From the NCBI GenBank assembly GCA_017432615.1, contig JAFRIV010000013.1, forward strand, positions 32,689 to 96,688: a stretch of DNA of 64,000 nt. The letters are read 5' to 3'. A program made the position numbers and the translations under genes. Positions 28,347 to 58,374 of the stretch are shown here, in pieces. Source of the stretch: Oscillospiraceae bacterium (GTDB lineage Bacteria; Bacillota; Clostridia; Oscillospirales; Oscillospiraceae). Within the stretch, counting starts at the first letter, position 1. Each line of letters starts with the position of its first letter. A model generated the notes under the pieces. That model had not been told where the DNA came from. It searched no databases and saw only the letters and a list, made by a program, of their open reading frames with translations.

Positions 28347-28354
28347 AGGAAATT

Positions 28355-28495: not shown

Positions 28496-28514
28496 ATATT
28501 TAATTTAGGGCTGT

Positions 28515-39089: not shown

Positions 39090-39120
39090 GGGATTTACAG
39101 ATGATCGTTAAGGCTTTTCG

Positions 39121-39149
39121 TTGACGAAAGGAAAGAAACAGGGTATAAT
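39121..39149 (+). promoter_or_regulatory. consensus-like sigmaA promoter TTGACG-17-TATAAT
   Basis: -35 at 39121-39126 and -10 at 39144-39149. It is followed by a leader of about 170 nt before 39326. Confidence 0.7.
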
Positions 39150-39151
39150 AA

Positions 39152-39190
39152 TTTATTAATCCGGCAATGAACAGTTACCGCATTCATAAA
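39152..39190. promoter_or_regulatory. imperfect 16-nt inverted repeat directly downstream of the -10, candidate metalloregulator operator
   Basis: TTTATTAATCCGGCAA (39152-39167), a 7-nt spacer, then TTACCGCATTCATAAA (39175-39190). 13 of 16 positions are complementary. Confidence 0.4.
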
Positions 39191-39325
39191 TTGTTTGGAT
39201 CGGTGTTTTCCTTTCCCTTGCAGGCAATCCCGAACCCTTCAGCAAATCCTGAATCACCCGAACAACAATACGGCAAAATATACGGACAGAAAAGAAGATG
39301 ATCTGTCTAAAAAACGGAGGAAGCA

Positions 39326-39703
39326 ATGAATCTTCATAAATCCGGAGAGGACTATCTGGAAGCAATTCTGGTCCTGCAAAACAAAAATGGGTATGTCAGA
39401 TCCCTTGATATTGCGGAATACATCGGTGTAACCAAACCAAGCATCAGCAATGCCACAAAACTTCTGCGAGAAGGCGGCTTCCTGACAATGGACGGAAGCA
39501 AGCTGATTCATCTGACGCCTCTTGGCAAGGAGGTTGCCGAAAGAATTTATGAGCGCCATAAAGTACTGACGGGGCTTCTTGTCCATCTTGGGATTGAGCC
39601 GGAGATCGCGGAGGAAGATGCCTGCCGCGTTGAGCATGACATCAGCCGGGAGACGTTTGACAGGCTGCGTGAGTGCTGGCAGAAGATCAAAGCGGAGGCA
39701 TAA
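39326..39703 (+). CDS. DtxR/MntR-family metal-dependent transcriptional regulator (short form, no SH3-like domain)
   Basis: 125 aa. SGEDYLEAILVL...VRSLDIAEYIGVTKPSISNATKLLREGGF...RHKVLTGLL...EEDACRVEHDIS. Confidence 0.8.
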   Translation: MNLHKSGEDYLEAILVLQNKNGYVRSLDIAEYIGVTKPSISNATKLLREGGFLTMDGSKLIHLTPLGKEVAERIYERHKVLTGLLVHLGIEPEIAEEDACRVEHDISRETFDRLRECWQKIKAEA

Positions 39704-39733
39704 AGCAAACCCGGAGTAAAGACGAGGAAAATC

Positions 39734-40474
39734 ATGCTGGAACTGAAACATGTCTCCTTCACGGCGGAAGACGCTGAAGGAGCAGAAAACCAAAAAGAGA
39801 TCATTCGGGATCTGAGCCTTGTTGTAGAAGACAGAAAGCTCATTGTGATCACAGGGCCAAACGGAGGAGGAAAATCATCCCTTGCAAAGCTGATAGCCGG
39901 TATTGAGCGGCCTTCCTCCGGACAGATCCTTTTCAACGGAGAAGACATTACCGAGAAATCCATTACCGAACGGGCACGAATGGGTATCGGCTTTGCATTT
40001 CAGCAGCCGGTTCGATTTAAAGGTATCAAAGTGATCAATCTGCTGCGCATTGCTGCCGGACGGCAGCTTTCTGTGTCGGAAGCCTGTAATTATCTTTCGG
40101 AAGTCGGCCTGTGCGCACGGGACTATATCCATCGGGAAGTCAACGCATCTCTCTCCGGCGGAGAGCTGAAACGAATTGAGATTGCCACGGTGCTGGCCCG
40201 TGCATGCCGCCTTACGGTTTTTGATGAACCGGAGGCAGGGATTGATCTCTGGAGCTTTCAGAACCTGATCCGCATTTTTGAAGAGATGCGCCGAAACATT
40301 CATGACAGTTCTATGATCATTATTTCTCATCAGGAGCGCATCCTGAACATTGCCGATGAAATTGCCGTTCTGGCTGACGGAAGGATCGAGCGCTTCGGTT
40401 CGCGGGAAGAACTGCTTCCGGCACTGGTCGGAACGGGAAGCGTGCAGGATGCCTGCAGCAGGCTGAAAGGGTGA
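39734..40474 (+). CDS. SufC-like Fe-S cluster assembly ABC ATPase
   Basis: 246 aa. Walker A GPNGGGKSS, signature LSGGELKR, Walker B TVFDEPEAGID. Confidence 0.8.
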   Translation: MLELKHVSFTAEDAEGAENQKEIIRDLSLVVEDRKLIVITGPNGGGKSSLAKLIAGIERPSSGQILFNGEDITEKSITERARMGIGFAFQQPVRFKGIKVINLLRIAAGRQLSVSEACNYLSEVGLCARDYIHREVNASLSGGELKRIEIATVLARACRLTVFDEPEAGIDLWSFQNLIRIFEEMRRNIHDSSMIIISHQERILNIADEIAVLADGRIERFGSREELLPALVGTGSVQDACSRLKG

Positions 40475-41406
40475 TGGCTGTGGTAACATTAGACGAAGTG
40501 CAAAAGCGTTTGATCCGCGAGGTGGCAGATCTGCATGAGATTCCGATGGGGGCGTATAACTTTCGTGCAAACGGGACTCTTGCCGGCAGAAATACTACAG
40601 CAAATATTGATATTTCATCCAAAGCTGACGGTTCCGGTATCGATATCCGCATTAAACCCGGCACGATACATGAAAGCGTGCATATTCCGGTGGTGCTCTC
40701 CGAAAGCGGCCTGAAGGAAACCGTATATAACGATTTTTATGTGGGCGAAGGCAGCGATGTTGTGATTGTTGCGGGCTGCGGGATCGACAACTGCGGCACA
40801 CAGGATTCCGAGCATGACGGGATCCATCGTTTCTATCTTGAAAAAGGCGCAAAGGTGCGCTATGTAGAGAAGCATTACGGCTCCGGGGACGGTCAGGGGC
40901 AAAGGATCCTAAATCCGGTTACCGAAGTTTACATGGCGGAAAACAGCTCGATGGAAATGGAAATGGTGCAGATCAAAGGCGTTGATTCCACCGAACGTAA
41001 AACAGTGGCCGAGCTGAAACAGGGTGCGCACCTTGTGGTAAGAGAGCGGCTGATGACGCACGGGACCCAAAAAGCATTGAGTATCTATAAAGTGATTCTT
41101 AACGGAGAAAACAGCAGTGCGGATGTGGTTTCCCGCTCCATAGCGCGTGAACGTTCCTATCAGAAACTGGACGCCTGTATTATCGGCAACGCGCCCTGCA
41201 AAGGGCATACCGAGTGCGATTCGATCATTATGGATGAAGGCACGATCCTTGCGGTTCCTTCGCTGGAAGCACATCATGTGGACGCATCCCTTGTCCATGA
41301 AGCGGCAATCGGGAAAATTGCCGGAGAGCAGCTGATCAAACTGATGACACTCGGTCTCAGCGAGAAAGAAGCAGAAGAGGAGATCATCAACGGATTCCTC
41401 GCGTAA
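40471..41406 (+). CDS. SufB/SufD-family protein, short (311 aa)
   Basis: A beta-helix-type repeat region and a C-terminal ...LEAHHVDASLVHEAAIGKIAGEQLIKLMTLGLSEKEAEEEIINGFL typical of SufB/D. 4-nt overlap with the sufC-like gene. Confidence 0.75.
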   Translation: MMAVVTLDEVQKRLIREVADLHEIPMGAYNFRANGTLAGRNTTANIDISSKADGSGIDIRIKPGTIHESVHIPVVLSESGLKETVYNDFYVGEGSDVVIVAGCGIDNCGTQDSEHDGIHRFYLEKGAKVRYVEKHYGSGDGQGQRILNPVTEVYMAENSSMEMEMVQIKGVDSTERKTVAELKQGAHLVVRERLMTHGTQKALSIYKVILNGENSSADVVSRSIARERSYQKLDACIIGNAPCKGHTECDSIIMDEGTILAVPSLEAHHVDASLVHEAAIGKIAGEQLIKLMTLGLSEKEAEEEIINGFLA

Positions 41407-41427
41407 GAGAAAACGGGAGGGTGAAGA

Positions 41428-42633
41428 ATGGCGGAACAGGTAAACATCCGCATGATGGGCTATTTTGCCATTGAAGCAAATGGCACTGTTCATGAGGAAC
41501 TGATGGCCAAAAGCCGGAAAGGGGTCAGCCTGATCCAGTATCTGGTTCTGGAACAGGGCAGACCGGTTTCCAGTCAGCGCCTTATTCGCGAACTCTGGTC
41601 AGGGAGTCGAAACGGAAATCCGGAAAATGCGCTCAAAACCATGGTAAGCAGGATGCGTTCTTCTCTCAATGAAATTTCACCCGGGCTGGGAATGTGCATT
41701 GTTTCCGGGCAGGGGGGTTACCGCTGGTGCTGTGCGGAAAATGTGCTGATCGATGTTCTGAAAATAATCGATCTCCTGAAAGAACTGCATACCGAGCTTG
41801 CGGCAGAAGAGAGGATAGTCCGGACAGAACATCTCCTGGAGTTGTACAGAGGGGATCTGTATCTTACGGGTGACCTTTTCAGCGGGCAGACGATGTGCAA
41901 CTGGCTGCATAATGAGTATCTCAATGCAGTCTACCGAATGGTCGACGCGCTGAAAGAAAGAGAAGAATATAACCGTATTTGCGAGATCTGCCGGAAAGCG
42001 ACCAAAGTTGATGATCTGGATGAACAGCTTCATATAGAACTGATGCAGGCAATGGTCAACTTAAACCGTGTTTCGGATGCCGCAGCGGAATATCTTGCTT
42101 TGCGGAAAAACAGCCGCCAGATTCTGGATGCGGAACCGGGACAAAATGTGCAGGAAGCTTATGAAACACTTGCCGACGCAGGAAAGACCATAAAATTCAA
42201 TCTTGACGTCATTCGCAACGAATTACTGGAACGGGAAGATGAGTGGAAAGGCCCCTTCTTTTGCGATTATCCTGTTTTCAAGGAAATCTATAACATCCAG
42301 ATGAGAAATCTGGAACGTCTCGGTTCCACGATGTTTCTTGCGGTGATCATGCTGGGCAATCTGGAAAACAGCAGCATGACCGGTAAAACACAAAGCTGTA
42401 TGGCCGGGCTGCAGGAAATTTTACGAATGAATATGCGAAAAGGGGACATTATTACCCGCTTTTCCGAAAATACGTTTGCTATGCTTCTGCCGATGGTCAA
42501 TTATTCTACGGGAAGCCTGGTAATGGAGCGAATTGAGCATCTGTATTATCAGGAATATGCCGCGTTGGCGATTCCGTTCCACGTACGTATCAGTCCGCTG
42601 GGACAAACGCCGCTTGTAAAAGTAAAAGGATAA
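41428..42633 (+). CDS. SARP-type regulator (OmpR-like winged helix + BTAD) fused to a degenerate GGDEF-like domain
   Basis: N-terminus IRMMGYFAIEANG...QRLIRELW...ALKTMVSRMRSSL...GGYRW, then a BTAD-like helical region. The C-terminus reads RKGDIITRFSENTFAMLLP, where canonical GGDEF domains read R..D...RxGGDEFxxxLP. Confidence 0.65.
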   Translation: MAEQVNIRMMGYFAIEANGTVHEELMAKSRKGVSLIQYLVLEQGRPVSSQRLIRELWSGSRNGNPENALKTMVSRMRSSLNEISPGLGMCIVSGQGGYRWCCAENVLIDVLKIIDLLKELHTELAAEERIVRTEHLLELYRGDLYLTGDLFSGQTMCNWLHNEYLNAVYRMVDALKEREEYNRICEICRKATKVDDLDEQLHIELMQAMVNLNRVSDAAAEYLALRKNSRQILDAEPGQNVQEAYETLADAGKTIKFNLDVIRNELLEREDEWKGPFFCDYPVFKEIYNIQMRNLERLGSTMFLAVIMLGNLENSSMTGKTQSCMAGLQEILRMNMRKGDIITRFSENTFAMLLPMVNYSTGSLVMERIEHLYYQEYAALAIPFHVRISPLGQTPLVKVKG

Positions 42634-42648
42634 AAAAGGAGAAACACA

Positions 42649-42987
42649 GTGGCTACAGTTGAACAGCTGAAACAATTCGGCGCAAATACGGAAGAAGGCA
42701 TTTCAAGATGTATGGGCAGCGAAGCGTTTTATCTCCGTATGGTCGGGCTGCTCTCCAAAGACAATAACTTTGAAGCGTTGAAAAAAGCACTGGCCGAGGA
42801 TGATTTAACGACCGCTTTTGAAAGAGCGCATGCGCTGAAAGGTGTGCTTGCCAATCTTTCTCTGACGCCTGTTCTGAAGCCTGTCAGTGAGATGACGGAA
42901 CTGCTGCGTGCTCATACAGAAACAGATTATACTTCTCTGCTCTCGGAAGCCGAGGAACAGATGAATAAACTGTTTGCAATTTTATAA
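42649..42987 (+). CDS. Hpt (histidine phosphotransfer) domain protein
   Basis: 112 aa with the HALKGVLANLSL (HxxKG) motif. GTG start with RBS AAAGGAG. Confidence 0.75.
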   Translation: MATVEQLKQFGANTEEGISRCMGSEAFYLRMVGLLSKDNNFEALKKALAEDDLTTAFERAHALKGVLANLSLTPVLKPVSEMTELLRAHTETDYTSLLSEAEEQMNKLFAIL

Positions 42988-43016
42988 AGGACGGCACCCG
43001 GGAAAGGAGGACAACT

Positions 43017-43841
43017 ATGAGCCGACGGATCTGGCAGATCTTTTTGCTGGCAGTTTTGATGACCGTACTGTTTTTCTGCGCAACTGTTTCAGCCTATGCT
43101 GACAGCGGTACAGCGCTCTGGCCGGTACAGATAGGAGTCAGCAACAGCAGCGGCAAGCTGTTGGTGGATGCAAACGGTGCGTCCAACGGGTATTTTTTTG
43201 CTGCAGTAAGCGGCAGTACCAGCCACAGGCTGAAACTGCGTGTTGTGAAGGACGGCACAACGCTGACATATGATCTGAATACCAATGCCGCTTTTGAACT
43301 GTTTCCGCTGCAGTTGGGAGACGGGTATTATGAAATAGTCCTCTATGAAAATGTTTCAGGGAAAAAATACTCGCAGGAGGGCAGCGTCGGTCTTTATGTA
43401 ACACTTTCACGGCCGGATGCAGCTTTCCTGGTACCAAGCCAGTATCTCAATTACACGCAGGCGTCAGAATGTATCGCTATGGCCGACAAACTCTGTGCTG
43501 GAAAAAGTGAGAAAGAAGCCTTTGATGCAATCTGCAAATTCATGAAGACCTCTTTTGTCTACGATTTTATCAAGGCAATAAACATAAAAGCCGGACAACT
43601 CCCGGACATAGACGGATCGTATGCTAAAAAGATGGGGGTATGTCAGGATCTGTCGGCTATTATGGTGGCAATGCTGCGTACACAGGGTATTCCGTCCAGG
43701 CTGATTATCGGATATGCCGACAGCCAGTATCACGCCTGGACAATGACAACAATCAACGGGCAGGATTCCTTTTTTGATCCGACTGCCGCTATTGCAGCTA
43801 TCAGCCAGGTCAAAGACTATTCCATGGAACGGTATTATTAA
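43017..43841 (+). CDS. secreted transglutaminase-like cysteine protease-fold protein
   Basis: Signal peptide ...LFFCATVSAYA. Core GVCQDLSAIMVAMLR...YHAWT...FFDPT supplies a Cys-His-Asp triad. Confidence 0.75.
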   Translation: MSRRIWQIFLLAVLMTVLFFCATVSAYADSGTALWPVQIGVSNSSGKLLVDANGASNGYFFAAVSGSTSHRLKLRVVKDGTTLTYDLNTNAAFELFPLQLGDGYYEIVLYENVSGKKYSQEGSVGLYVTLSRPDAAFLVPSQYLNYTQASECIAMADKLCAGKSEKEAFDAICKFMKTSFVYDFIKAINIKAGQLPDIDGSYAKKMGVCQDLSAIMVAMLRTQGIPSRLIIGYADSQYHAWTMTTINGQDSFFDPTAAIAAISQVKDYSMERYY

Positions 43842-43853
43842 GGAGGAGAGAAT

Positions 43854-44897
43854 ATGGCAAGAAAGCAAAACGGACTTTCCAGTGCAGAGCTGAGCAACTT
43901 CTGCGGACAGGTGGCACTGATTCTGGAGGCAGGGCTTCCGTTATATGACGGGATGGAGACTCTTGCAGGCACAGAATCCGGAACCGGGTCTGACGGCATG
44001 TATCAGGCAGTAAGCCGCGGCGTCAATGAAACAGGCAGCCTGTATGATGCACTGAAAGGAGATGAACGCTGGCCGTCTTATCTTGTAGAGATGATCGGCA
44101 TCGGAGAACGTTCCGGGCATCTGGAGAAAGTCATGCGCGGGTTGGAAAAGTACTACGCAAGAGAGGACAGAATCCGCTCTTCCGTCGTCAGTGCGGTAAC
44201 TTATCCGATGGTTCTCAGTGTGATGCTTGTATTGATCGTATTCATCCTGCTGTGGAAGGTCCTCCCTGTATTCCGCCGGGTGCTCAACTCCATGGGCGTC
44301 GGGATGTCGGAAACGGGCAGCGCCCTGATGAAGGTAGGGTCAATTGTCGGATGGATCGTGCTGGTGCTGGTGGTGGTACTGCTGGTGGCAGCCCTTGCAC
44401 TGGTGATCCTCAGCCGGACGAAATACCGGGATAAAGTTATCGATCTGGTACAGAAAATTCCCGTTATAGCCCGGCTGAACAGGAAGCTCTCCGCTTCCCG
44501 TGTTTCCAGTGTGCTCTCCATGATGCTTTCCTCCGGTTTTCCGACGGAAGAGGCATTGGACATGACAAGTTCTGTCCTTTCCGACCCTGCTGCTGCAGAA
44601 AAGGTGAAGAGTATCCGCACGGGGCTTGACGAAGGGAAAACCTTTGCCGATGCCATTTCCGATACGGGCCTTTTTGATGAGCTGCATTCCCGCATGATCA
44701 AGATGGGGTGCGCCACCGGACATGAAGACCAGGTGCTGGGAAAGCTTTCAGAGCTGTATGAAGAGCAGGTGGAAGATGATATCAGCAGGCTGATTGCAAT
44801 CATCGAGCCGACGCTTGTTGCGCTGCTGGCTGTTGTTATCGGGGCAGTGCTGCTTTCTGTCATGCTGCCGATGGCAGGGATCCTGACCAGCCTTTGA
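43854..44897 (+). CDS. type II secretion / type IV pilus platform protein (GspF/PilC family)
   Basis: 347 aa with two T2SSF repeats, three TM segments, and C-terminal ...IEPTLVALLAVVIGAVLLSVMLP. Confidence 0.85.
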   Translation: MARKQNGLSSAELSNFCGQVALILEAGLPLYDGMETLAGTESGTGSDGMYQAVSRGVNETGSLYDALKGDERWPSYLVEMIGIGERSGHLEKVMRGLEKYYAREDRIRSSVVSAVTYPMVLSVMLVLIVFILLWKVLPVFRRVLNSMGVGMSETGSALMKVGSIVGWIVLVLVVVLLVAALALVILSRTKYRDKVIDLVQKIPVIARLNRKLSASRVSSVLSMMLSSGFPTEEALDMTSSVLSDPAAAEKVKSIRTGLDEGKTFADAISDTGLFDELHSRMIKMGCATGHEDQVLGKLSELYEEQVEDDISRLIAIIEPTLVALLAVVIGAVLLSVMLPMAGILTSL

Positions 44898-44916
44898 TGC
44901 CGCAGGGAGGAGCCAC

Positions 44917-45222
44917 ATGAACCGGCGAGATGTAATAAAACTGGTGATTTTTGCAGCAGTACTGGTCTGTGCCTTGCTGCTGATCAACCGTATTGACATA
45001 GCGCAGGGCACCGCCGAAAATGAGATCGTTCGGGACGCGATCCGCAATGCTGCCGTTACCTGCTATGCAGTTGAAGGTGCATACCCGGATTCTGTCGATT
45101 ATCTGCGCGAACATTATCGCCTTGCGTATGATGAAAATCGTTATCTGGTCACCTATGAGGCTTTTGCCTCCAACAGGATTCCGGATATCTATGTAACGGA
45201 GAGGGGGCAGAAGTTACCTTGA
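44917..45222 (+). CDS. small pilin-topology protein (non-canonical N-terminus; GspG/ComGC-like C-terminal motif)
   Basis: 101 aa. MNRRD leader, then hydrophobic VIKLVIFAAVLVCALLLI. Later comes CYAVEGAYPDSVDYL, which resembles the G.YP.sL..L motif of major pseudopilins. Confidence 0.5.
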   Translation: MNRRDVIKLVIFAAVLVCALLLINRIDIAQGTAENEIVRDAIRNAAVTCYAVEGAYPDSVDYLREHYRLAYDENRYLVTYEAFASNRIPDIYVTERGQKLP

Positions 45223-45734
45223 ACAGAAACAGTGCTCCTTCCCACGTCATATCCGGCGTGTTTGTGTTTCTCCTGCTGGGGATATTTGCCGTTTTTTCCA
45301 CCGTGATGGTGCTTCTCGGCGTAAAAGCCTATCGTTCTGCGGTAGAGCGTACCGGGATGCATAACACGGCGCGCATCAACACGGCATATATCCGCACCAT
45401 GCTTCGAGCAGACGATGAAACAGGTACTTTTGCCGTGGAGGAAGTAACCGGTACCGCTATGGAAAACGGTACGGTTACGGACGTCTCTGTAGAAACACTG
45501 ACGCTGCGTAACAACTATGACGGAGAAGAGTATATTACCCGTATCTATGTGTACGGCGGCAGCCTGCGGGAGTGGTTTACGCGGGCGGAAGAACCGTTTC
45601 GCGCAGATGGCGGCGAAGTAGTGTGCCCGGCAGAAGAACTTACGGCAGAGCTGGATGAGAATCTCCTTACAGTACGGGTACGTGCCGGTGAAGAATGGTC
45701 TACCGTTTATCTGGCACTCCGTGCCGGCACGTAG
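45219..45734 (+). CDS. small membrane-anchored protein, pilin-topology (possibly DUF4860-like)
   Basis: 171 aa. The TTG start overlaps the upstream stop. MNRNSAPSHVISG is followed by VFVFLLLGIFAVFSTVMVLLGV. Confidence 0.45.
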   Translation: MNRNSAPSHVISGVFVFLLLGIFAVFSTVMVLLGVKAYRSAVERTGMHNTARINTAYIRTMLRADDETGTFAVEEVTGTAMENGTVTDVSVETLTLRNNYDGEEYITRIYVYGGSLREWFTRAEEPFRADGGEVVCPAEELTAELDENLLTVRVRAGEEWSTVYLALRAGT

Positions 45735-45746
45735 AGAGGAGAAGAA

Positions 45747-46142
45747 ATGAAACCAAAAAATCATAGCAATGCGCTTTTGATAGAACTGCTGATCGTGGTA
45801 TTTTTTTTCATGATCTCCGCCACGGTTTTACTTCGCCTTTTCTCGGAAGCACGTTCTCAAAGCAAAAAAGCGGAGATACTGGCTGCTGCAACAGTGCAGG
45901 CACAGAATGTAGCCGAGCAGCTTTATGCCAGCAATGACCGGGAAGAAAAACTGCTGCAGCTGGGCTTTGCCGGACAGGAAGACGGATGGACTCTTTTAAA
46001 AGAGGACTACACCATTCTGGTGCAGCTTAAGCAGGAACAGACCACCGGCGGTACGCTCTTCCAGGATGCGGTAAAAATCGAAATGGGCGGGGAAACCCTG
46101 CTCACGCTCCCCTGTTTCCGCTATGAGGAGGTGGCTGCATGA
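45747..46142 (+). CDS. pseudopilin-like protein with degenerate prepilin N-terminus
   Basis: 131 aa. MKPKNHSN-ALLIELLIVVFFFMISATVLL has Glu at +5 relative to Ala, as in FTLIE, but Asn instead of Gly at -1. Confidence 0.55.
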   Translation: MKPKNHSNALLIELLIVVFFFMISATVLLRLFSEARSQSKKAEILAAATVQAQNVAEQLYASNDREEKLLQLGFAGQEDGWTLLKEDYTILVQLKQEQTTGGTLFQDAVKIEMGGETLLTLPCFRYEEVAA

Positions 46143-46579
46143 ACCGGAAAAGCAATGTAAGCCTCGGGCCGGGAGCTTCCTCGCTGATTTTGATCTTCGT
46201 GGTACTGAGCATGGCAGTACTGGGTATGCTTTCGCTGATGACGAGTCAGAATGATCTGCGTCTCTCCGAAAGAAATGTTCAGGTAACCGAGGCTGTCTAT
46301 ACCCTGAATGCGCAGGCAGAACGCCGCCGGGCAGAGATCGACGAGATCCTGATCCGGTGCGCTGCACAGACCGGAAATGAGGAAGCTTATCTGACAATGG
46401 CCGGAGAGGCAATGCCGGAAGATGTGATTCTGGAAGATCATGTGATCTCGTGGTATGAATCAGATGGAGGGAGGACGCTGGACTGTGCGCTGGAGATCTC
46501 CCCGCTTGGTGAAAAAGAACGAACAGCCTGGATCAGATATGATCTGACAGCGGAAACGGAGGACGCATGGAATTGGTAG
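46139..46579 (+). CDS. small membrane-anchored protein, pilin-topology
   Basis: 146 aa. MNRKSNVSLGPG-ASSLILIFVVLSMAVLGMLSLM. ATGA overlap with the upstream gene. Confidence 0.45.
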   Translation: MNRKSNVSLGPGASSLILIFVVLSMAVLGMLSLMTSQNDLRLSERNVQVTEAVYTLNAQAERRRAEIDEILIRCAAQTGNEEAYLTMAGEAMPEDVILEDHVISWYESDGGRTLDCALEISPLGEKERTAWIRYDLTAETEDAWNW

Positions 46580-47619
46580 ATATTCTTCGCCGTGCCGTAG
46601 AATTGGGCGGATCGGATATATTTGTGGTCCCCGGATCCTCGGTAATGGTGAAAGTCGATAACAATATGGTACCCCTTACGCAGGAGAAGCTTCTGCCTAA
46701 AGATACCGAAGCGCTGGTAGGCTGTATGTACGAGATTGCCCGCCGTGATTATAATCTGCTGGAACGGGACGGAGATGACGACTTCTCTTTCGCCATTCTG
46801 GATGTCAGCCGTTTTCGCTGCAATGCGTATAAGCAGCGCGGCACGGTTGCCGCAATCTGCCGTATCGTTAATTTTGAACTGCCCAATGCTTCCGAACTGC
46901 AGATCCCTTCTCTGGTGATGGAGCTTTCCAAACTGCGTAGCGGAATGGTGCTGGTAACAGGACCGGCCGGAAGCGGAAAAAGCACAACACTTGCCTGCAT
47001 TGTAGACAAGATCAACGCGGAACGGCAGGCACATATTGTGACCATTGAAGATCCTATTGAATATCTGCACAGACACAACAAATCCCTCGTTTCCCAGAGA
47101 GAAGTTCCCAACGATGCGGCAACATTCTCCCGGGCACTGCGTGCGGCCTTACGACAGGCACCGGATGTGATCATGCTCGGTGAAATGAGAGACCTGGACA
47201 CGATCCGCACCGCTATTACCGCAGCTGAAACGGGACATCTGCTGCTGTCTTCCCTGCATACCATCGGAGCGGCAAAAACGGTTGACCGCGTGATCGATAC
47301 ATTTCCTGCGGAGCAGCAGGCACAGATTCGGGTGCAGCTCTCCATGGTACTGAAAGCAGTTGTTTCTCAGCGCCTGATCCCAACGATCGACGGACACCGC
47401 GTGGCCGTATTTGAGGTAATGACGGTCAACCCTGCCATTCAGAATATGATCCGCGACGGAAGGACCCATCAGATCGATAATGTGATCTTTGGCGGGAGCG
47501 ACAAGAGCATGATCTCCATGGATGCCGAGCTGCAGAAGATGGTACGTGAAGGAAAAATCACCCGAGAGAACGCACTGTTATATGCTGCCAATCCGGATAC
47601 GCTGTCGAAACGGATCTGA
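46567..47619 (+). CDS. pilT: PilT-family type IV pilus (retraction-type) ATPase
   Basis: 350 aa. Walker A GPAGSGKST, IVTIEDPIEYLH, SQREV, Walker B DVIMLGEMRD, His box TGHLLLSSLHT, and AIQNMIRDG, the counterpart of the PilT AIRNLIRE motif. There is no PilB-type N-terminal or zinc-finger region. Confidence 0.85.
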   Translation: MELVDILRRAVELGGSDIFVVPGSSVMVKVDNNMVPLTQEKLLPKDTEALVGCMYEIARRDYNLLERDGDDDFSFAILDVSRFRCNAYKQRGTVAAICRIVNFELPNASELQIPSLVMELSKLRSGMVLVTGPAGSGKSTTLACIVDKINAERQAHIVTIEDPIEYLHRHNKSLVSQREVPNDAATFSRALRAALRQAPDVIMLGEMRDLDTIRTAITAAETGHLLLSSLHTIGAAKTVDRVIDTFPAEQQAQIRVQLSMVLKAVVSQRLIPTIDGHRVAVFEVMTVNPAIQNMIRDGRTHQIDNVIFGGSDKSMISMDAELQKMVREGKITRENALLYAANPDTLSKRI

Positions 47620-47630
47620 AGGAGGCTGCC

Positions 47631-48188
47631 ATGATACTGGATAAAAATTATTTTAACAATATTCGGCTGGAAACCGTAAGAAAAAAATTCTATAACGCCG
47701 ATGCGGTAGACCGCCTTCTTGTGGATATCCGCAGCAAAGCAGACGGAATGACGAGGGAGCTTCTTCAGGCCAGAGCGGAATGCGAGGATGCCCTGAAGAC
47801 AGCGGAAGCGCTGCGGGAAGAGAATGAAGACCTTCGCAACAAAGGGAGAGTGCTTTCCCAGGAGATCCTTTCGCTTCGGGAAGATCTGAAAAATGCCCAA
47901 CAGAGTGAGGTTGAGGTGCCGGATACGGATGACCTGACACAGCGTCTTGAAGAAGCAGAAAAAGCAAAGCAGGCAGTTGTAGCCCGTTCCCGGGCAAGAC
48001 AGGAAGAGGTGGTAGAGAAGATGGAGACGCTTCTCTCCTCCCTGCGAGAACTGCAGAATCGATCCATGGAACAGATCAACGCCCAATGGGAAGAGATCCT
48101 TTCCAGCCTGGAGGACGTACCGCTCGATCTGACAGAGAAGGTCGGCCAGATCGCAAAAGAACTCAATGAAATAGAGGAGCTGCAGTAG
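47631..48188 (+). CDS. DivIVA-domain coiled-coil protein
   Basis: 185 aa. N-terminus F..IRLETVRKKFYNADAVDRLLVDI resembles the DivIVA F..RGYd..eVd.fL motif. The rest is E/K/L/R-rich coiled coil. Confidence 0.55.
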   Translation: MILDKNYFNNIRLETVRKKFYNADAVDRLLVDIRSKADGMTRELLQARAECEDALKTAEALREENEDLRNKGRVLSQEILSLREDLKNAQQSEVEVPDTDDLTQRLEEAEKAKQAVVARSRARQEEVVEKMETLLSSLRELQNRSMEQINAQWEEILSSLEDVPLDLTEKVGQIAKELNEIEELQ

Positions 48189-48267
48189 ATAAGCGTAGAC
48201 GCGGCGCGGTTTTCACGGTTGAAAAACGAAAGCAGGTCTGCTATAATAAAAACAGCAAGCGACAAGG

Positions 48268-48305
48268 AAGTTGCCGAGGCACGGAGTGGCCGGCAACTTT
48301 TTTGC
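48268..48305 (+). terminator. rho-independent terminator closing the 39.1-48.2 kb gene array
   Basis: AAGTTGCCG (48268-48276) pairs with CGGCAACTT (48291-48299) and is followed by TTTTTGCTTTT. Confidence 0.75.
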
Positions 48306-48377: not shown

Positions 48378-49085
48378 ATGTCAAAAAAGATGATCGTTCT
48401 CATCGGAAATTACGGATCAGGGAAAACGGAACTCGCACTGAATTTTGCGGTGCAGGCAGCTGCCCGCGGCGAGAAAACAGAACTGCTTGATCTGGACATG
48501 GTAAATACCTATTTCCGCCTGACGGAGCCGGGAAGACTGACCAGAATGAAGCAGATTCGGGTGGTTTCCCCTAATTTTACCAACTCCGGTATTGAGACGC
48601 TTTCTCTTCCGGCTGAGGTACAGTCTGCCTTTGCAATGGATTGGGATACGGTGGTGTTTGACGTCGGCGGGGATGCAGTCGGAGCTACGGCACTCGGACG
48701 TTACCACCAGGATTTTCTGGAGCTCTCCCCGGAAGATCTTCAGGTGCTGAATGTGATCAATATTCGCCGTCCGCTGGCCGGGACGGTGGACAAGATCGTT
48801 CATTTACAGGAAGAGATGCAGGAACATGCCCGACTGAAAATCACGGGAATGATCAATAACTCCAATCTGGCGATGGCTACAACGCCGGCGGAATTGCGGG
48901 ACGGCTACGAAGTGATACGGGAAGTATCCGAAAAAACGGGAATCCCGGTACGGTATACCTCCGGAAAAAAAGAAATGCTGGAGGCATTTCTTGCGGAAGA
49001 CCATGATCCTGCCTACATCGGTACTCCGCTGGTAATCGACACCTATATGGCTCGTGACTGGGAGAGCTGGATCCAGAGCCTGTAG
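48378..49085 (+). CDS. P-loop NTPase (SIMIBI-like; CooC/MinD-related?) of unknown function
   Basis: 235 aa. Walker A GNYGSGKT and Walker B-like VVFDVGGD. A promoter TTGAAT-17-(TG)TATGAT lies about 40 nt upstream. Confidence 0.5.
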   Translation: MSKKMIVLIGNYGSGKTELALNFAVQAAARGEKTELLDLDMVNTYFRLTEPGRLTRMKQIRVVSPNFTNSGIETLSLPAEVQSAFAMDWDTVVFDVGGDAVGATALGRYHQDFLELSPEDLQVLNVINIRRPLAGTVDKIVHLQEEMQEHARLKITGMINNSNLAMATTPAELRDGYEVIREVSEKTGIPVRYTSGKKEMLEAFLAEDHDPAYIGTPLVIDTYMARDWESWIQSL

Positions 49086-49138
49086 CGGCTGTAAATCTGT
49101 CTTTCAAAATTTTATGATAGAAGAAAGAGGGTCTGTTC

Positions 49139-49348
49139 ATGTTCAAAGTAACAATTAATGAGCTCCTCTGCAAGGGGTGTGGCCTGTGCGCAAGGGCATG
49201 TCCGAAAGGCGTTCTCGCCCTGTCCAGAACGAAGCTCAATCTAAAGGGGTATCACCCCGCGGAGGTCGTCTCTCAGGAAAAATGCATCGGATGTGCTTCC
49301 TGTGCACATACCTGCCCTGATGTGGCGATCCGAATTGAAAAGGAATAG
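49139..49348 (+). CDS. 2-oxoacid:ferredoxin oxidoreductase delta subunit (2x[4Fe-4S] ferredoxin)
   Basis: 69 aa. [12 protein letters not shown] and [12 protein letters not shown]. Confidence 0.85.
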
Positions 49349-49359
49349 GAGGGAGAGAA

Positions 49360-50436
49360 ATGGCTCTTACACTGATGAAAGGCAGTGAAGCGCTTGCAGA
49401 AGCTGCCATTCGTGCCGGCGCACGGTTCTTTTTCGGCTATCCGATCACACCGCAGACAGAAATCCCCGAGTATATGTCGGCGAGGATGCCGGAGGTCGGG
49501 GGATGCTTCCTCCAGGCTGAAAGTGAAATAGCCGCCATCAACATGGTATACGGGGCGGCATCCACCGGAGAGCGTGTTATCACTTCTTCTTCCAGCCCCG
49601 GTGTTTCCCTGAAACAGGAGGGTATTTCCTACATGGCTGGTGCCCGTCTGCCAGCAATGATCCTCAACGTGATGCGCGGCGGCCCGGGACTGGGCAGCAT
49701 TCAGGCTTCACAGGGTGATTACTTTCAGGCGACAAAAGGCGGCGGAAACGGGGACTATCATCTGCTCACGTATGCGCCTTCCTCTATTCAGGAAGCCATC
49801 GATATTATGATGTTTGCCTATGACAAGGCAGAAAAATATCGCGTACCCTGCCTGATGCTTGCCGACGGCATCATGTGCCAGATGATGGAGCCGGTCGAAA
49901 TGCCGGAAATGGTCGATTTCAAGGTCGACCCGGAAAAGAAGACCTGGGCCGTTACAGGCTGGAAGCCGGGTGATGATCCGGAAAAGAGAGCCGTGATCAA
50001 CTCTCTGTTTATCAATACGGAAGAGCTTTCGGAACACAATAATCTTCTGCAGGCTACCTATCGTGAAATAGAAAAAAACGAGAAGAAGTGGGAATACTAT
50101 AAAACGGAAGATGCAGATGTAATCATCACGGCATTCGGCACAGTAGCACGCATTGCAAAATCTGCCGTGGATGAGATGAGAGACCAGGGGATCAAGGCAG
50201 GCGTATTTCGCCCGATTACCGTTTGGCCGTATCCCTACGAAGCACTGAAAGAAGCGGCTGTTTCCTGCAAGGCTGTACTGGATGTGGAAGCCAATGAGGG
50301 ACAGATGAAGGAAGATGTTCTGCTTGCAATAAACGGGACAAAACCGGTGGAGTATTTCGGCCACTGCGGCAGCCAGATGCCTACGACGGATGAGATCATT
50401 GCCAAAGTTCATGAGATGATGAAGGAGGGCAAATAA
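49360..50436 (+). CDS. 2-oxoacid:ferredoxin oxidoreductase alpha subunit (Kor/Vor type)
   Basis: 358 aa. GSEALAEAAIRAGARFFFGYPITPQTEI. Confidence 0.85.
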   Translation: MALTLMKGSEALAEAAIRAGARFFFGYPITPQTEIPEYMSARMPEVGGCFLQAESEIAAINMVYGAASTGERVITSSSSPGVSLKQEGISYMAGARLPAMILNVMRGGPGLGSIQASQGDYFQATKGGGNGDYHLLTYAPSSIQEAIDIMMFAYDKAEKYRVPCLMLADGIMCQMMEPVEMPEMVDFKVDPEKKTWAVTGWKPGDDPEKRAVINSLFINTEELSEHNNLLQATYREIEKNEKKWEYYKTEDADVIITAFGTVARIAKSAVDEMRDQGIKAGVFRPITVWPYPYEALKEAAVSCKAVLDVEANEGQMKEDVLLAINGTKPVEYFGHCGSQMPTTDEIIAKVHEMMKEGK

Positions 50437-50437
50437 A

Positions 50438-51187
50438 ATGTCTGTTGTATTTGAAAAAACCTCTTATTTGACTGAAAAGCCGTTCCATTACTGCCCGGGC
50501 TGCGGCCACGGCATTATTCACCGCCTGGTGGCGGAGTGCCTGGAAGAGAGCGGAATGGGAGAAAAGATCGCCGGAGTTGCGCCGGTAGGATGCTCTGTTT
50601 TTGCCTATGATTATTTTAACTGCGATATGCTCGAAGCGGCGCACGGCCGTGCACCTGCTGTAGCGACCGGTGTAAAACGTGCCAAACCGGATACGCTGGT
50701 ATTTACCTATCAGGGAGACGGTGACCTCGCATCCATCGGTACAGCAGAGATCGTGCATGCGGCACACCGCGGAGAAAAGATTGTTACGATTTTTGTCAAC
50801 AACGCGATTTACGGCATGACAGGCGGTCAGATGGCTCCGACAACGCTGGTGGGTCAGCGCACGACCACTTCTCCTTACGGGCGCGATGAAGCCTGGTGCG
50901 GCGCCCCGATTAAAATGAGCGAAATGCTCGCCACAATACCGGGAGCCTATTATATTGAACGCTGCTCCGTAGATACCAATGCAAATATCATCAAAACCAA
51001 GAAGGCTATCCGGAAGGCGTTCGAATACGAAAAGGCCGGAAAAGGCTTCTGCATGATCGAAGTCCTCTCTCCCTGCCCGACAAACTGGGGATTGAATCCG
51101 ACGGAAGCAATGAAATGGCTGGAAGAAAACATGATCCCGTATTATCCGCTTGGCGTTTATAAAGACAAGGGGGCTGATGAAAAATGA
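50438..51187 (+). CDS. 2-oxoacid:ferredoxin oxidoreductase beta subunit (TPP-binding)
   Basis: 249 aa. YCPGCGHG and GDGD...NNAIYGMTGGQ. Confidence 0.85.
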   Translation: MSVVFEKTSYLTEKPFHYCPGCGHGIIHRLVAECLEESGMGEKIAGVAPVGCSVFAYDYFNCDMLEAAHGRAPAVATGVKRAKPDTLVFTYQGDGDLASIGTAEIVHAAHRGEKIVTIFVNNAIYGMTGGQMAPTTLVGQRTTTSPYGRDEAWCGAPIKMSEMLATIPGAYYIERCSVDTNANIIKTKKAIRKAFEYEKAGKGFCMIEVLSPCPTNWGLNPTEAMKWLEENMIPYYPLGVYKDKGADEK

Positions 51188-51738
51188 AACAGGAATTCAT
51201 TTTTGCAGGATTCGGCGGTCAGGGAATGCTGCTGATCGGTAAATTCCTGGCACTGGCCTGTATGAAAGAGGGAAAGCATGTGACCTGGCTGCCGTCCTAC
51301 GGGCCGGAGATGCGCGGCGGAACGGCAAACTGCTCTGTGATCGTCAGTGATGAACCGGTGGCGTCTCCCATGGTAGACAAGGCAGATGTTGTGATTGCCA
51401 TGAACGAGCCGTCACTGGACAAGTTTGAATCCCATGTTCGCCCGGGCGGGCTGCTGGTGATCAACAGCTCCATCATCGAAAGAAAATCCGTTCGCGACGA
51501 CATTAAGGTAGTCTACTGTGATGCAATGCACATTGCAGAGGCTGTCGGGAACCCGAAAGGCGCCAATGTGGCGATCCTGGGGGCAATGATGGCAAAATGC
51601 CATGTGGTTGATACCGATAAAATGGTTGAGGCCATCCGGGAAGAACTCGGAGAACGCAAAGCCAAATTCCTTGAAGGCAACAAAAAGGCACTGCTTGCCG
51701 GAAAAGAAATGGCAGAAGAAAAGTGGAAATATCTTTAA
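51184..51738 (+). CDS. 2-oxoacid:ferredoxin oxidoreductase gamma subunit
   Basis: 184 aa. FAGFGGQGMLLIGK...YGPEMRGG. Confidence 0.85.
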   Translation: MKQEFIFAGFGGQGMLLIGKFLALACMKEGKHVTWLPSYGPEMRGGTANCSVIVSDEPVASPMVDKADVVIAMNEPSLDKFESHVRPGGLLVINSSIIERKSVRDDIKVVYCDAMHIAEAVGNPKGANVAILGAMMAKCHVVDTDKMVEAIREELGERKAKFLEGNKKALLAGKEMAEEKWKYL

Positions 51739-53443: not shown

Positions 53444-53820
53444 TTACAGGCTCCTTAATATGATATATCAAATCATCGGGTAAGTTCCTCTCCCCGGTAT
53501 CGGTTTCCCTGAATCCGATTAAGCGCTGCGAAGAGCAGAGACGTTTTTGCTGTACAAAAAGAGCATATTCCGAGATCCGCCGCAGCACAGCAAAGTGAGT
53601 TTAGCACATCCGCCTGACATCTGCAATGCAAAATCTTCCCTTTCCTCACGGAGAAGCCGGCATCCTGCTCATTTCTGCCGGCACAAGCCGGGAACACAAA
53701 CAAAGGCGGGCAGACAGCCCTTCTTTTTCATCCAGAATATGATATTCCTCCTTAAAATAAACCCGTCTTTGCTTGCGCAGAGACGGGTTTTGCGGTACAA
53801 TCAGGCGGGAGTTGATCATT

Positions 53821-54771
53821 ATGGATGCCGACATTCTTCGAAAGCTTTCCAAAATTTCCGCAGAGGAGAAAGAGATCCTCGGCGGACGCTGCCATATCGA
53901 TCGCAGCATTTATATGGACGGCAGCCGGGATGTGATCAGCGGGGAGAAGCTGCTGGAAAAAGGGAAGCTCATCGCCATCCGGCCTCATACACGCTTTATC
54001 GCCTTCCCGGAGCACAGCCACGACTATGTGGAGATGGTATACATGTGTGCGGGAGAGACCCGGCACACGGTCAACGGAAACGCAATCACCCTGCATCAGG
54101 GCGAGCTTTTGATGCTGGGGCAGAACGCGCATCAGGCCATCAAAGCGTCGGGGGAGAGGGACATTGCGGTGAACTTCATTGTGCGACCGGCCTTCTTTTC
54201 CGGAACGCTGCCCTTCCTCGGGGAGGAGGAGACGCCTCTGCGCCGCTTTGTGGTAAACTGCCTGACAGGGGAGAACGAGACCGGCTATCTTCTGTTTCAT
54301 GTGGCAGACATTCTGCCCATTCAAAATCTGATTGAGAATCTGCTCTTTACGCTTCTGGAGGATATCCCCAACAAGCGGGGCATTCTCCAGATGACCATGG
54401 GGCTTCTCTTTGCCCAGCTGATGAACCACACCGAGGCTCTGCAATTTGAGACCCAGGAGCAGAACGCGGTCGTCTCCGTTCTGCGATATCTGGAGGAGCA
54501 CTACCGCGACGGGAGTCTCACGGAGATCGCCGGCAGACTCCACTATGAGCTGCCGTCCCTGTCGCGGCTGATCCGGCAGAAGGCGGGGAAGAGTTACACG
54601 GAGCTGCTGCAGGAGAAGCGGCTGAGCCAGGCGGCATGGCTGCTGCGCAACACAGACAAGAATGTTGACGAGATCGCAAACGCCGTCGGTTACGAAAACC
54701 ACAGTTACTTCCACCGTCTGTTTGCCGCGCGCTACAGCCTGTCTCCAAAGAAATATCGAGATTGCAAATAA
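53821..54771 (+). CDS. AraC-family transcriptional regulator (cupin sensor + 2 HTH), rhamnose-cluster associated
   Basis: MDADILRKLSKISAEEKEIL..., a cupin region, and C-terminal ...SLSRLIRQKAGKSYTELLQEKRLSQAAWLLRNTDKNVDEIANAVGYENHSYFHRLF. I prefer the ATG at 53821. Confidence 0.85.
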   Translation: MDADILRKLSKISAEEKEILGGRCHIDRSIYMDGSRDVISGEKLLEKGKLIAIRPHTRFIAFPEHSHDYVEMVYMCAGETRHTVNGNAITLHQGELLMLGQNAHQAIKASGERDIAVNFIVRPAFFSGTLPFLGEEETPLRRFVVNCLTGENETGYLLFHVADILPIQNLIENLLFTLLEDIPNKRGILQMTMGLLFAQLMNHTEALQFETQEQNAVVSVLRYLEEHYRDGSLTEIAGRLHYELPSLSRLIRQKAGKSYTELLQEKRLSQAAWLLRNTDKNVDEIANAVGYENHSYFHRLFAARYSLSPKKYRDCK

Positions 54772-54853
54772 AGACACTTTTTCAGAAAAGTCAAGACCTG
54801 CAAAAACACTCTCTCTTCCTGTATCATGAAAAACAGGAGGGGAGAGTGATATA

Positions 54854-57546: not shown

Positions 57547-57561
57547 GGAGACAGAACCAAC

Positions 57562-58374
57562 ATGAAAAACATTCTGGAAGCCCCTTTTATGGTGGAAATG
57601 ATCCGGACCACCACCAACATGTATAACCACGGCTGGGACGAACGCAACGGCGGCAACATCAGCCTGCTGCTGGACGGGACGGAAGTTGCAGAGTATCTGG
57701 ACATTCACGAAGTGATCCGCACGATCCCCACCGGCTTCTCCGCTCCGGAACTTGACGGCAAGTACTTCCTTGTCACCGGCACCGGCAAGTATTTCAAGAA
57801 CGTCCAGTACGCCCCGGACGTGAATCTGGGTCTGGTGCGTTTGTGCGACGGCGGCAGGATGGCGGAGCTCCTCTGGGGCTACAGCGACGGCGGAAAGTTT
57901 ACCAGCGAGTTCCCCGCGCACATGATGAGCCATGTGGCACGCCTCAGGAGCGATCCTGAAAACCGCGTGGTCATGCACTGCCACCCGGCGAATCTCCTGG
58001 CCATGACCTATGTACATTCTCTGGATGAGCGGGAGTTTACCCGCACCCTCTGGCAGATGTGCACCGAATGCATTGTGGTCTTCCCCGACGGTGTGAACGT
58101 GCTGCCCTGGATGCTCTGCGGAACCAACGAGATCGGCGAAGCGACTGCGGAGAAGATGAGCACAGCCCGCCTGGTGGTCTGGGCTCTCCACGGTATCTAC
58201 GGCGCAGGCAAGGATCTGGACGAGACCTTCGGGCTCATCGAGACGGCCGAGAAGGCTGCCGAGATCTATATGAAAATCGCTCACCTGCCGCGGGTGAACA
58301 CCATTACCGACGACATGATGCACCAGCTGGAGGTCCGGTTCGGCGTCAAAGGCCGCGAGGCTTATCTGGACTGA
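57562..58374 (+). CDS. rhaD: rhamnulose-1-phosphate aldolase
   Basis: 270 aa. GWDERNGGNISLLL, VTGTGKYFKNV, VMHCHPANLLA, CIVVFPDGV. It runs parallel to E. coli RhaD along its length. Confidence 0.85.
   Translation: MKNILEAPFMVEMIRTTTNMYNHGWDERNGGNISLLLDGTEVAEYLDIHEVIRTIPTGFSAPELDGKYFLVTGTGKYFKNVQYAPDVNLGLVRLCDGGRMAELLWGYSDGGKFTSEFPAHMMSHVARLRSDPENRVVMHCHPANLLAMTYVHSLDEREFTRTLWQMCTECIVVFPDGVNVLPWMLCGTNEIGEATAEKMSTARLVVWALHGIYGAGKDLDETFGLIETAEKAAEIYMKIAHLPRVNTITDDMMHQLEVRFGVKGREAYLD

Follow-up and report, generated by a model that had tools for sequence, protein, structure and literature searches.

We analysed a stretch of 64,000 nucleotides (hereafter, the window) from contig JAFRIV010000013.1 of an Oscillospiraceae bacterium (assembly GCA_017432615.1), and more precisely an array of thirteen + strand open reading frames (ORFs), 39326-48188, in which a metalloregulator gene and a SufC/SufB-like pair are followed by signalling genes and by genes related to those of type IV filaments. 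Our conclusion is that this array is probably a recent, lineage-specific fusion of independently conserved units, which now share one promoter and one terminator. It draws on the anatomy of the array, the family assignments, the conservation patterns and the absence of a conserved linkage, all of them direct results of the analysis. The first unit (39326-41406) would consist of an MntR-like metalloregulator followed by smsC-smsB, a sulfide-dependent iron-sulfur (Fe-S) scaffold of housekeeping type that serves anaerobes, many Clostridia among them, and is found as a stand-alone pair elsewhere. The second (41428-48188) would be a type-IV-filament-like module equipped with a SARP and an Hpt protein, and found widely among uncultured Clostridia of rumen and gut.

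The two units are conserved separately

Loci carrying the filament module were collected with its PilC protein, using one genome per species (GTDB). This gave 80 loci with 57-78% PilC identity, mostly in metagenome-assembled genomes (MAGs) of rumen Clostridia, Christensenellales and Oscillospiraceae, which places the module in at least 80 species; the loci were examined by tblastn and blastp with the window proteins. A scan of metagenomes for the SufC-SufB pair returned 80 further loci (74-85% identity), 48 of them with at least 3 kb of downstream sequence and 58 with at least 1 kb upstream. None of the 80 species had SufB or DtxR within 10 kb of the module PilC, 48 of these loci having at least 4 kb of sequence upstream of the module. 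Reciprocally, genes for DtxR, SARP/BTAD, Hpt, transglutaminase, PilC, pilin, PilT or the coiled-coil protein were found at 0 of the 80 SufCB loci, even at E ≤ 1e-3 and with any coverage.

The window is reproduced by contigs from several metagenomes, and its SufB-like protein is identical to that of an Oscillospiraceae MAG. The array with both its flanks recurs only in a sister lineage (L170 and L171, PilC 88% identical), where it is preceded by DnaE, a HhH-GPD protein and an unknown gene, and followed by genes for a ParA-like protein, a ferredoxin and a 2-oxoacid:ferredoxin oxidoreductase. The closest relatives outside this clade carry each unit alone. The species next in PilC identity (78%) has an autonomous operon running from the transglutaminase-like gene to PilT, plus a 261-amino-acid protein; this operon begins 230 nt behind a divergent gene and has no flank in common with the window. 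SufB relatives that are 86-87% identical belong to stand-alone two-gene units flanked by genes of the opposite strand. The SufC-SufB pair was met in at least five unrelated contexts, among them ferredoxin-SufCB convergent with a CoA-disulfide-reductase-like gene, and DUF4914-SufCB-Ddl. SufC precedes SufB in all 71 metagenome loci with sequence ahead of sufB, and the two are likewise paired in each of the other contexts inspected. Conservation also differs between the two units, at 84-87% for the Suf pair versus about 40-60% for the small proteins of the module.

An earlier note, based on the DNA letters of the window, had proposed that the sensor and regulators, the SufBC pair and the filament module may belong to one system, with absence of the adjacency in related genomes set in advance as one outcome that would speak against it. 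That absence is what was observed, at module loci and SufCB loci alike. The comparison across genomes that the note called for found SufC/SufB next to PilC..PilT only in the close relative L170/L171, to which a distant, convergent arrangement (L007, L178), discussed below, has to be added.

Boundaries of the transcription unit

The thirteen co-directional genes described in the earlier note, and the distances between neighbours, were reproduced exactly: 30, -4, 21, 15, 29, 12, 19, -4, 12, -4, -13 and 11 nt, the second becoming -1 nt with the sufB start at ATG 40474 that gene callers use. Each of the thirteen genes has a correctly spaced, GGAGG-like Shine-Dalgarno sequence. The near-consensus promoter and the stem-loop with U-tract that the note had placed at the two ends (Table 1) were both found, and both persist in the sister lineage.

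Apart from this promoter, the + strand of the array has no strong sigma-70-like site. Promoter-like matches numbered 11 in the array scan, for 10.7 expected by chance; a weaker one (10/12, TTGACA-17-GAAAAT, 44993-45021) lies within pil1, and no consensus-like promoter was found in the 21 nt gap between smsB and the SARP gene or in the sequence before it. To detect terminators, the 45 nt preceding every + strand T-run between 39100 and 48400 were folded. No second stable hairpin abutting a T-run was found on this strand, the nearest other candidate being a hairpin of -16.5 kcal/mol located 7 nt before a T7 (about 43150-43199), within the transglutaminase gene.

In L170, the leader is about 125 nt shorter; the promoter is kept, and the remaining leader has diverged or been deleted. 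The terminator stem is retained there through compensatory changes (GTTGCCG/CGGCAAC to GTTGTCA/TGACAAC), and the smsB-SARP junction of 21-22 nt is retained as well. Because promoter, terminator stem and junction are all retained in the sister lineage, the boundaries of the transcription unit appear to be under selection in the window clade. There, the array is probably one operon, co-transcription being predicted from this anatomy. The single transcription unit of about 9 kb put forward in the earlier note is therefore plausible, given the tight packing, the lack of an internal terminator or second strong promoter, and the boundaries kept in L170. Unit 2 would most likely be read through from the promoter at 39121, because it lies only 21 nt behind smsB, which leaves no room for a promoter of its own. 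Such a fusion could make filament expression follow a metal-dependent regulator.

A few other elements were considered around these boundaries. A riboswitch or structured leader upstream of the DtxR-type gene was rejected, as 39150-39325 had no match in an Rfam search and a fold z-score of +0.69, that is, no excess folding. Just before the terminator, a promoter-like site with an extended -10 box (11/12, TTGAAA-17-TATAAT with TG, 48219-48247) would give a transcript of about 50 nt. A small RNA made from this site and the terminator was rejected: the stretch is absent in L170, and the site is probably due to chance. A repeat search for the signature of a mobile element around the module gave short, chance-level repeats only, with no flanking inverted or direct repeats.

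Table 1. Features of the array and its borders (window positions).
Positions	Strand	Feature	Basis
39121-39149	+	sigma-70-type promoter, TTGACG-17-TATAAT	11/12 consensus matches
39150-39325	+	5' leader, ~176 nt	no RNA family, no detectable structure
39326-39703	+	MntR-subfamily DtxR-type metalloregulator, 125 aa, without SH3 domain	Pfam, NCBIfam and PDB matches
39734-40474	+	SmsC/SufC-type ABC ATPase, 246 aa	ABC_tran; SufC best NCBIfam match; PDB SmsC
40471-41406	+	SmsB/SufB*-type minimal Fe-S scaffold subunit, 311 aa (310 aa from ATG 40474)	SUFBD_core; PDB matches
41428-42633	+	SARP: winged helix + BTAD, C-terminal degenerate GGDEF	Trans_reg_C + BTAD; GGDEF 22.4 bits, sub-threshold (23.8)
42649-42987	+	Hpt, single domain, 112 aa, H-A-L-K-G motif	Pfam Hpt 33.8 bits, over cut-off
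43017-43841	+	transglutaminase-like (papain-fold) protein, putatively secreted or anchored	Transglut_core; first core gene; signal-like N-terminus
43854-44897	+	PilC/GspF-type inner-membrane platform, 347 aa	T2SSF, two repeats
44917-45222	+	pil1, bitopic, 101 aa	N-terminal transmembrane helix; no prepilin motif
45219-45734	+	pil2, DUF4860, 171 aa	Pfam DUF4860; N-terminus ...SG/VFVFLLLG, Gly at -1, no Glu5
45747-46142	+	pil3, candidate major pilin, 131 aa	N-terminus ...SN/ALL(I/V)ELLIVV; Glu at +5; Asn, not Gly, at -1
46139-46579	+	pil4, pilin-like, 146 aa	invariant GPG/A-x-SLILI N-terminus; no Glu5
46567-47619	+	PilT/PilU-family hexameric ATPase, 350 aa	T2SSE; TIGR01420 411 bits, cut-off 319
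47631-48188	+	coiled-coil protein, 185 aa, weakly DivIVA/ZapB-like	no family match for the window protein
48268-48305	+	intrinsic terminator, stem of ~9-14 bp then T6	dG -26.9 kcal/mol, z -4.4

The SufC/SufB pair belongs to the minimal SUF systems

SMS, or SufB*C, is an ancestral two-gene Fe-S scaffold that uses sulfide; it is found mainly in Euryarchaeota, Clostridia and Deltaproteobacteria, and the pair substitutes for ISC and SUF in anaerobic E. coli supplied with sulfide (PLoS Biol 2025, PMC12192291; bioRxiv 10.1101/2024.03.20.586028). The best PDB match of the array SufC is SmsC of M. jannaschii (MJ0035, E 7e-43, 150 bits), well in front of Thermus SufC (1e-29), and its sequence shows recognisable Walker A (GPNGGGKSS), Walker B (FDEPEAG) and H-motif (ISHQ) segments. 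For the SufB-like protein, M. mazei SufB* (4dn7, E 8.5e-25) and M. jannaschii MJ0034 (4e-16) are better matches than E. coli SufB (1e-11). In the HMMER alignment to MJ0034 (9h7y_B), Cys252 falls on the C of TECDS, and His279 and Glu280 on the H and E of VHEA; these three residues of M. jannaschii SufB* are essential by mutagenesis (bioRxiv 10.1101/2024.03.20.586028). No sufS, sufD, sufE or sufU gene was found adjacent to the pair, which forms a two-gene unit, and no second Fe-S system was found within the window.

The resemblance to the MJ0035-MJ0034 system thus extends from the smsC-smsB order, with overlapping stop and start codons and a SufB-like protein of about 310 amino acids as in MJ0034, to the closest solved match of SmsC, the three essential residues and the lack of adjacent SufS, SufD, SufE or SufU genes. 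Unlike in M. jannaschii, the array pair has an MntR-like gene before it and unrelated genes after it, in one probable operon. On these sequence grounds we assign the pair to the SMS/minimal SUF scaffolds, cluster assembly itself being predicted. The SufB-like protein is 84-87% identical over more than 100 protein clusters, and this very high conservation fits a core function; in this organism the pair would be housekeeping.

An MntR-like regulator precedes the pair in one clade

The protein encoded by the first gene scores over the cut-off of both Pfam domains (PF01325, 36.9; PF02742, 56.7), and MntR is its best match in NCBIfam and in the PDB, at 91 bits for an equivalog cut-off of 153. Five of the six ligand positions of B. 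subtilis MntR are kept (D8, E11, H77, E102 and H103), the sixth, E99, being replaced by Cys. It therefore resembles the MntR proteins of B. subtilis and E. coli, DtxR-family members without SH3 domain, by its two domains, its metal ligands and a length near that of the solved chains (140-155 amino acids). It differs from them by a score under the equivalog cut-offs, by the Glu99 to Cys change and by the position of its gene before smsCB. Among the lineages sampled, this last arrangement is restricted to the window clade.

A 6-2-6 inverted repeat read directly from the sequence (TTTCGT-TG-ACGAAA, 39116-39129) overlaps the -35 box of the promoter, and is partly retained in L170 (4/6 positions of the right arm). 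The MntR-like regulator may have its operator in this repeat, and may thus control its own gene.

A seven-gene core in at least 80 species

The conserved core of the filament module has the order transglutaminase-like gene, PilC, pil1, pil2, pil3, pil4 and PilT-family ATPase. All seven genes are present in 73 of the 80 loci; five of the seven incomplete ones are cut by the end of a contig, and the two others lack pil2 (L051) or the transglutaminase-like gene (L060). In L171 (11369-11720), the DUF4860 gene is absent from an otherwise intact array, pil1 and pil3 being 350 nt apart, which may be a natural deletion or an assembly variant.

The transglutaminase-like protein has a Cys209 and a His239 that are invariant among 25 orthologues, as Asp254 nearly is, and its best PDB match is a putative cysteine protease (3isr, E 9e-6). 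The PilC of the module, 57-78% identical in the 80 species, is a divergent one, with scores under the curated GspF, PilC and ComGB cut-offs (152 bits vs 240 for ComGB). The PilT-family protein has no second T2SSE-type ATPase beside it in the cluster. Its identity is 66-83% over the 77 loci, out of 80, that reach that far, and it scores well below the cut-offs of the ComGA (128 bits vs 300) and PilB (127 vs 676) models.

Three of the four small proteins (pil2, pil3 and pil4) have prepilin-like N-termini. In pil3, L10, L11 and E13 are invariant, and the N-terminus has a weak profile match to that of geopilin (E 0.4). The features of a class III signal peptide are split among them: pil3 combines Glu5 and the helix with Asn at -1, pil2 and pil4 have Gly at -1 and no Glu5, and pil1 has neither Gly at -1 nor Glu5. 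The latter is characterised by an invariant CYAVEG, after which AY is near-invariant and P invariant; its family, which has no Pfam or NCBIfam model, counts 1021 representative clusters (E ≤ 1e-3) among 1.8 billion library proteins. Its single-sequence structure model (predicted local distance difference test score, pLDDT, of 55) was too poor for fold identification. For pil2, an AlphaFold model built from a 40-sequence alignment (pLDDT 85.7) shows a helix of 57 residues (8-64) followed by eight beta strands, which is the general shape of a pilin. Foldseek found no PDB match to this model at E ≤ 0.001, the top query-normalised TM-score listed being 0.33, for a type IV-like pilin of Thermus. 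Profile searches with pil1-pil4 against PDB sequences gave nothing significant, and a Pfam scan at E ≤ 10 gave noise only.

The coiled-coil gene is a lineage-specific appendix of the core, confined to the window clade plus the three species nearest to it. Its orthologues have sub-threshold DivIVA or ZapB matches, as in L015 (DivIVA, 18.5 bits vs a cut-off of 28, E 0.002). Pfam and NCBIfam largely bear out the family labels of the earlier note, two of which were weaker than claimed. 'DivIVA-like' finds no match in the window protein itself, and a sub-threshold one in an orthologue; 'four pilin-like ORFs' holds for the three proteins with a prepilin-like N-terminus and not for pil1, and none of the four matches a solved pilin by sequence.

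Two observations concern the distribution and neighbours of the module. MAGs labelled Flexilinea, Leptolinea, Anaerolineaceae or Chloroflexi carry the same module, with a PilC about 70% identical (L026, L028, L029, L033, L045, L046 and L061); either the module moved horizontally among rumen phyla, or these MAGs are mis-binned or mis-labelled. Directly upstream of the transglutaminase gene, several species encode a protein of about 900 amino acids ending in a sortase domain with a TLVTC motif (L175:6300-8930, matching Pfam Sortase; L026, L028, L033, and L045:1223-3997), a neighbour suggesting that the module may be connected with surface proteins anchored in the cell wall.

Signalling genes associated with the module

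A SARP (BTAD) gene lies within 10 kb of the module in 32 of the 80 loci, an Hpt gene in 40, and either of them in 53, at varying positions. The earlier note had grouped these signalling proteins with both parts of the array; SARP, Hpt and the transglutaminase-like protein do go with the filament module, but not with the Suf pair.

The C-terminal domain of the SARP lacks the GG(D/E)EF active site of diguanylate cyclases. The corresponding position reads F-S-E-N-T-F in the window protein and H/R-F-S-P in orthologues, and is degenerate in all 22 sequences aligned. Four residues before it stands an RxxD motif, R-K-G-D, of which R, G and D are invariant and K is conserved in at least 90% of the 22 orthologues. 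An invariant RxxD together with a degenerate GGDEF is typical of cyclic di-GMP (c-di-GMP) receptor domains, and the SARP is therefore a candidate c-di-GMP receptor. It compares with degenerate-GGDEF receptors of the PelD and PopA type through the RxxD preceding a degenerate GG(D/E)EF, and with SARP/AfsR activators through its OmpR-type winged helix and BTAD domain. We know of no characterised protein in which winged helix, BTAD and degenerate GGDEF are fused.

Other signalling genes recur near the module. In 21 of the 80 species (within L010-L089; e.g. L023:3866-5038 and L011:6940-8070), the module adjoins a gene for a multi-pass membrane protein whose RYGGDEF cyclase domain is intact, and REC-GGDEF-EAL proteins, another GGDEF protein and hybrid histidine kinases were found at 7, 5 and 6 loci, respectively. 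As the clustering of neighbouring ORFs was polluted by long antisense ORFs, only clusters whose sequences were read directly were used. The conserved RKGD of the SARP, the GGDEF cyclases and hybrid kinases nearby and the presence of Hpt together suggest that the module is under c-di-GMP and phosphorelay control.

The module compared with known type IV filaments

One hallmark of type IV filaments is plain, a T2SSE-family ATPase and a T2SSF-family platform encoded at one locus. The cluster does not have the PilB and PilM/N/O proteins that define type IVa pili, nor proteins scoring as ComGA/ComGB equivalogs. With the Com pilus (comG operon: ComGA, ComGB, ComGC-GG) the module shares a compact operon in a monoderm, with one ATPase, one platform, four to five pilin-like proteins of 100-170 amino acids, and neither secretin nor PilMNO. 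Unlike in comG, the ATPase is of the PilT family and comes last, the obligate first gene is the transglutaminase-like one, and a prepilin peptidase was found neither in the window nor recurrently at the module loci.

Type IVa pili of Clostridia (pil loci of C. perfringens and C. difficile) are c-di-GMP-controlled. The module resembles them by its PilC platform, its PilT-family ATPase, a candidate pilin with hydrophobic N-terminus and Glu5, and the association with c-di-GMP genes. It departs from them by the lack of PilB, PilD and PilMNO in the cluster and the window, by the Asn at -1 of the candidate major pilin, and by a control that appears to operate via the degenerate GGDEF of the SARP and via Hpt, rather than through a c-di-GMP riboswitch or binding to PilB.

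We propose that a hexamer of the PilT-family protein would act on the PilC platform, and that the two would extend and/or retract a short filament of pil3, with pil2 and pil4 as minor subunits. The small proteins of unit 2 would comprise one Glu5 pilin candidate, two pilin-like proteins and one bitopic protein. The transglutaminase-like enzyme may act on the cell wall or on filament subunits, and expression would be set by c-di-GMP and phosphorelay inputs. The prepilin peptidase may be encoded elsewhere in the genome, as in MSH systems.

Other features of the window

In the operon that follows the array (48378-51738), a ParA/MinD-type P-loop protein, weakly similar to Fe-S carriers of the Mrp/NBP35 type (MrpORP, E 6e-5), is encoded ahead of a 2x[4Fe-4S] ferredoxin and the three subunits of a 2-oxoacid:ferredoxin oxidoreductase. 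If the filament genes were removed, smsCB would directly adjoin this Fe-S-rich operon.

On the - strand, a purine riboswitch (RF00167, 62 bits, 28413-28510) lies between a phosphoribosyltransferase gene (28594-29163) and an operon for a Bmp/PnrA-type nucleoside ABC transporter (about 23435-28400), an ordinary arrangement. The region from about 13500 to 22000 has a G+C content of 41-43%, versus about 50% elsewhere, and contains genes for the membrane component of a DctM-type TRAP transporter, an NMT1-like binding protein, transaldolase-like, FAA-hydrolase, dehydrogenase and xylose-isomerase-like proteins and a GntR regulator; this block may be a horizontally acquired catabolic island. At 53773-58374 (+ strand), where G+C reaches 56-59%, long antisense ORFs are spurious; the real genes form a sugar operon, with an AraC regulator, an FGGY kinase, a fucose/arabinose-isomerase-like protein and a class II aldolase.

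Discussion

Several results weigh against the array being a fusion of a housekeeping Fe-S unit and a filament module under one promoter. A promoter within the 3' end of smsB, or the site at 44993-45021, could drive parts of the array independently, co-transcription being deduced from gene layout. Two loci labelled Anaerovoracaceae, L007 and L178, which are of the same lineage and context, have SufCB adjoining a distant module (PilC 31% and pil1 51% identical). On the side of unit 1, the housekeeping status of the Sms pair is deduced from sequence. Its SmsC has a single Cys in the last 30 residues (...VQDACSRLKG), unlike archaeal SmsC, whose Cys-rich C-terminal region binds [4Fe-4S] and has a CxxC in about 75% of cases, the number of Cys in this region ranging from 0 to 5 across SmsC sequences (SMS literature). 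The SufB-like protein scores 51 bits, over its C-terminal third only, against a cut-off of 650 for the NCBIfam SmsB model NF052511, a narrow test since this is an 'exception'-type model of 445 positions. On the side of unit 2, the evidence for the pilin nature of the small proteins consists of N-terminal motifs and one predicted model, and neither the window nor, recurrently, the 80 loci yielded a prepilin peptidase, PilB or PilMNO.

How these points bear on other explanations can now be considered. That metalloregulator, SufBC-like pair, signalling and filament genes form one dedicated system, connecting metal or Fe-S status to an envelope machine, would agree with thirteen genes at distances of at most 30 nt behind one promoter and before one terminator, with the retention of this arrangement in the sister lineage, and with the second, independent adjacency in L007 and L178. 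At this last locus, however, the genes (order PilC, four small genes, transglutaminase, SARP; L007:11305-18196, L178:11305-18195) are convergent with SufCB and so not co-transcribed with it, and no T2SSE ATPase was found within 10 kb of the distant module. L177 and L179 have different SufCB contexts, without the module. If two operons are placed at random in a genome of 2.5-3 Mb, a rough estimate gives fewer than 0.5 cases of chance adjacency among some 86 contexts, so that one extra case is not significant, though it is not zero. Adding to this the mutual absence of the units at the 80 module and 80 SufCB loci, the relatives outside the clade in which each stands alone, and a Suf pair far more conserved than the small proteins and with its scaffold residues kept, we consider a single dedicated system very unlikely. 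A phage-type integrase gene is present upstream of SufCB in L007.

A related proposal is that the SufC/SufB-like pair was recruited as an ABC-type accessory motor or chaperone of the filament machine, and is not an Fe-S scaffold. The cluster does lack a PilB-type assembly ATPase, and the pair does score under the curated SufB, SufD and SmsB cut-offs. Nevertheless, the residues essential to the scaffold are kept, SmsC and SmsB are the closest solved relatives, and the pair (75-87% identity) occurs without filament genes in all other contexts but one, which makes such a recruitment hardly credible. Less improbable, while still unlikely in our view, is that the array yields two or more transcripts from promoters in coding sequence (3' end of smsB; 44993-45021), its tight spacing reflecting compaction after rearrangement. 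SARPs usually act on promoters near their target genes, the module has a promoter region of its own elsewhere, such as the 230 nt intergenic gap of L176, and the site within pil1 matches 10 of 12 positions. Against this stand the chance level of promoter-like matches, the lack of a consensus-like promoter in or before the smsB-SARP gap, and the lack of a terminator between the units. We therefore favour a recent fusion of two independently conserved units, read from one promoter.

A coupling of Fe-S or metal status to a surface filament, if true, would be a new regulatory principle. From the comparisons made here, the linkage looks like a young gene-order accident of one narrow clade, and should not be annotated as one system. 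The Sms pair by itself is a clear bacterial example of SMS/minimal SUF, here behind an MntR-like gene.

The more interesting part of the array is the filament module, seven genes in strict synteny in at least 80 species, largely uncultured rumen Clostridia. It is apparently undescribed: the literature had no papers on DUF4860, and none joining type IV pili, transglutaminase, PilT and Clostridia. Tentatively, and with the odds rather against it, the core might be an undescribed type IV filament subtype of uncultured rumen and gut Clostridia, having a PilT-family protein as sole dedicated motor, a secreted papain-fold protein as obligate partner, and SARP control through a c-di-GMP-sensing degenerate GGDEF; in the window clade it would have been captured behind an MntR-type promoter, the filament then becoming metal-responsive. 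With neither the usual assembly ATPase nor the peptidase in cis, the module is a tractable target for studying how type IV filaments are built and regulated in monoderm anaerobes.

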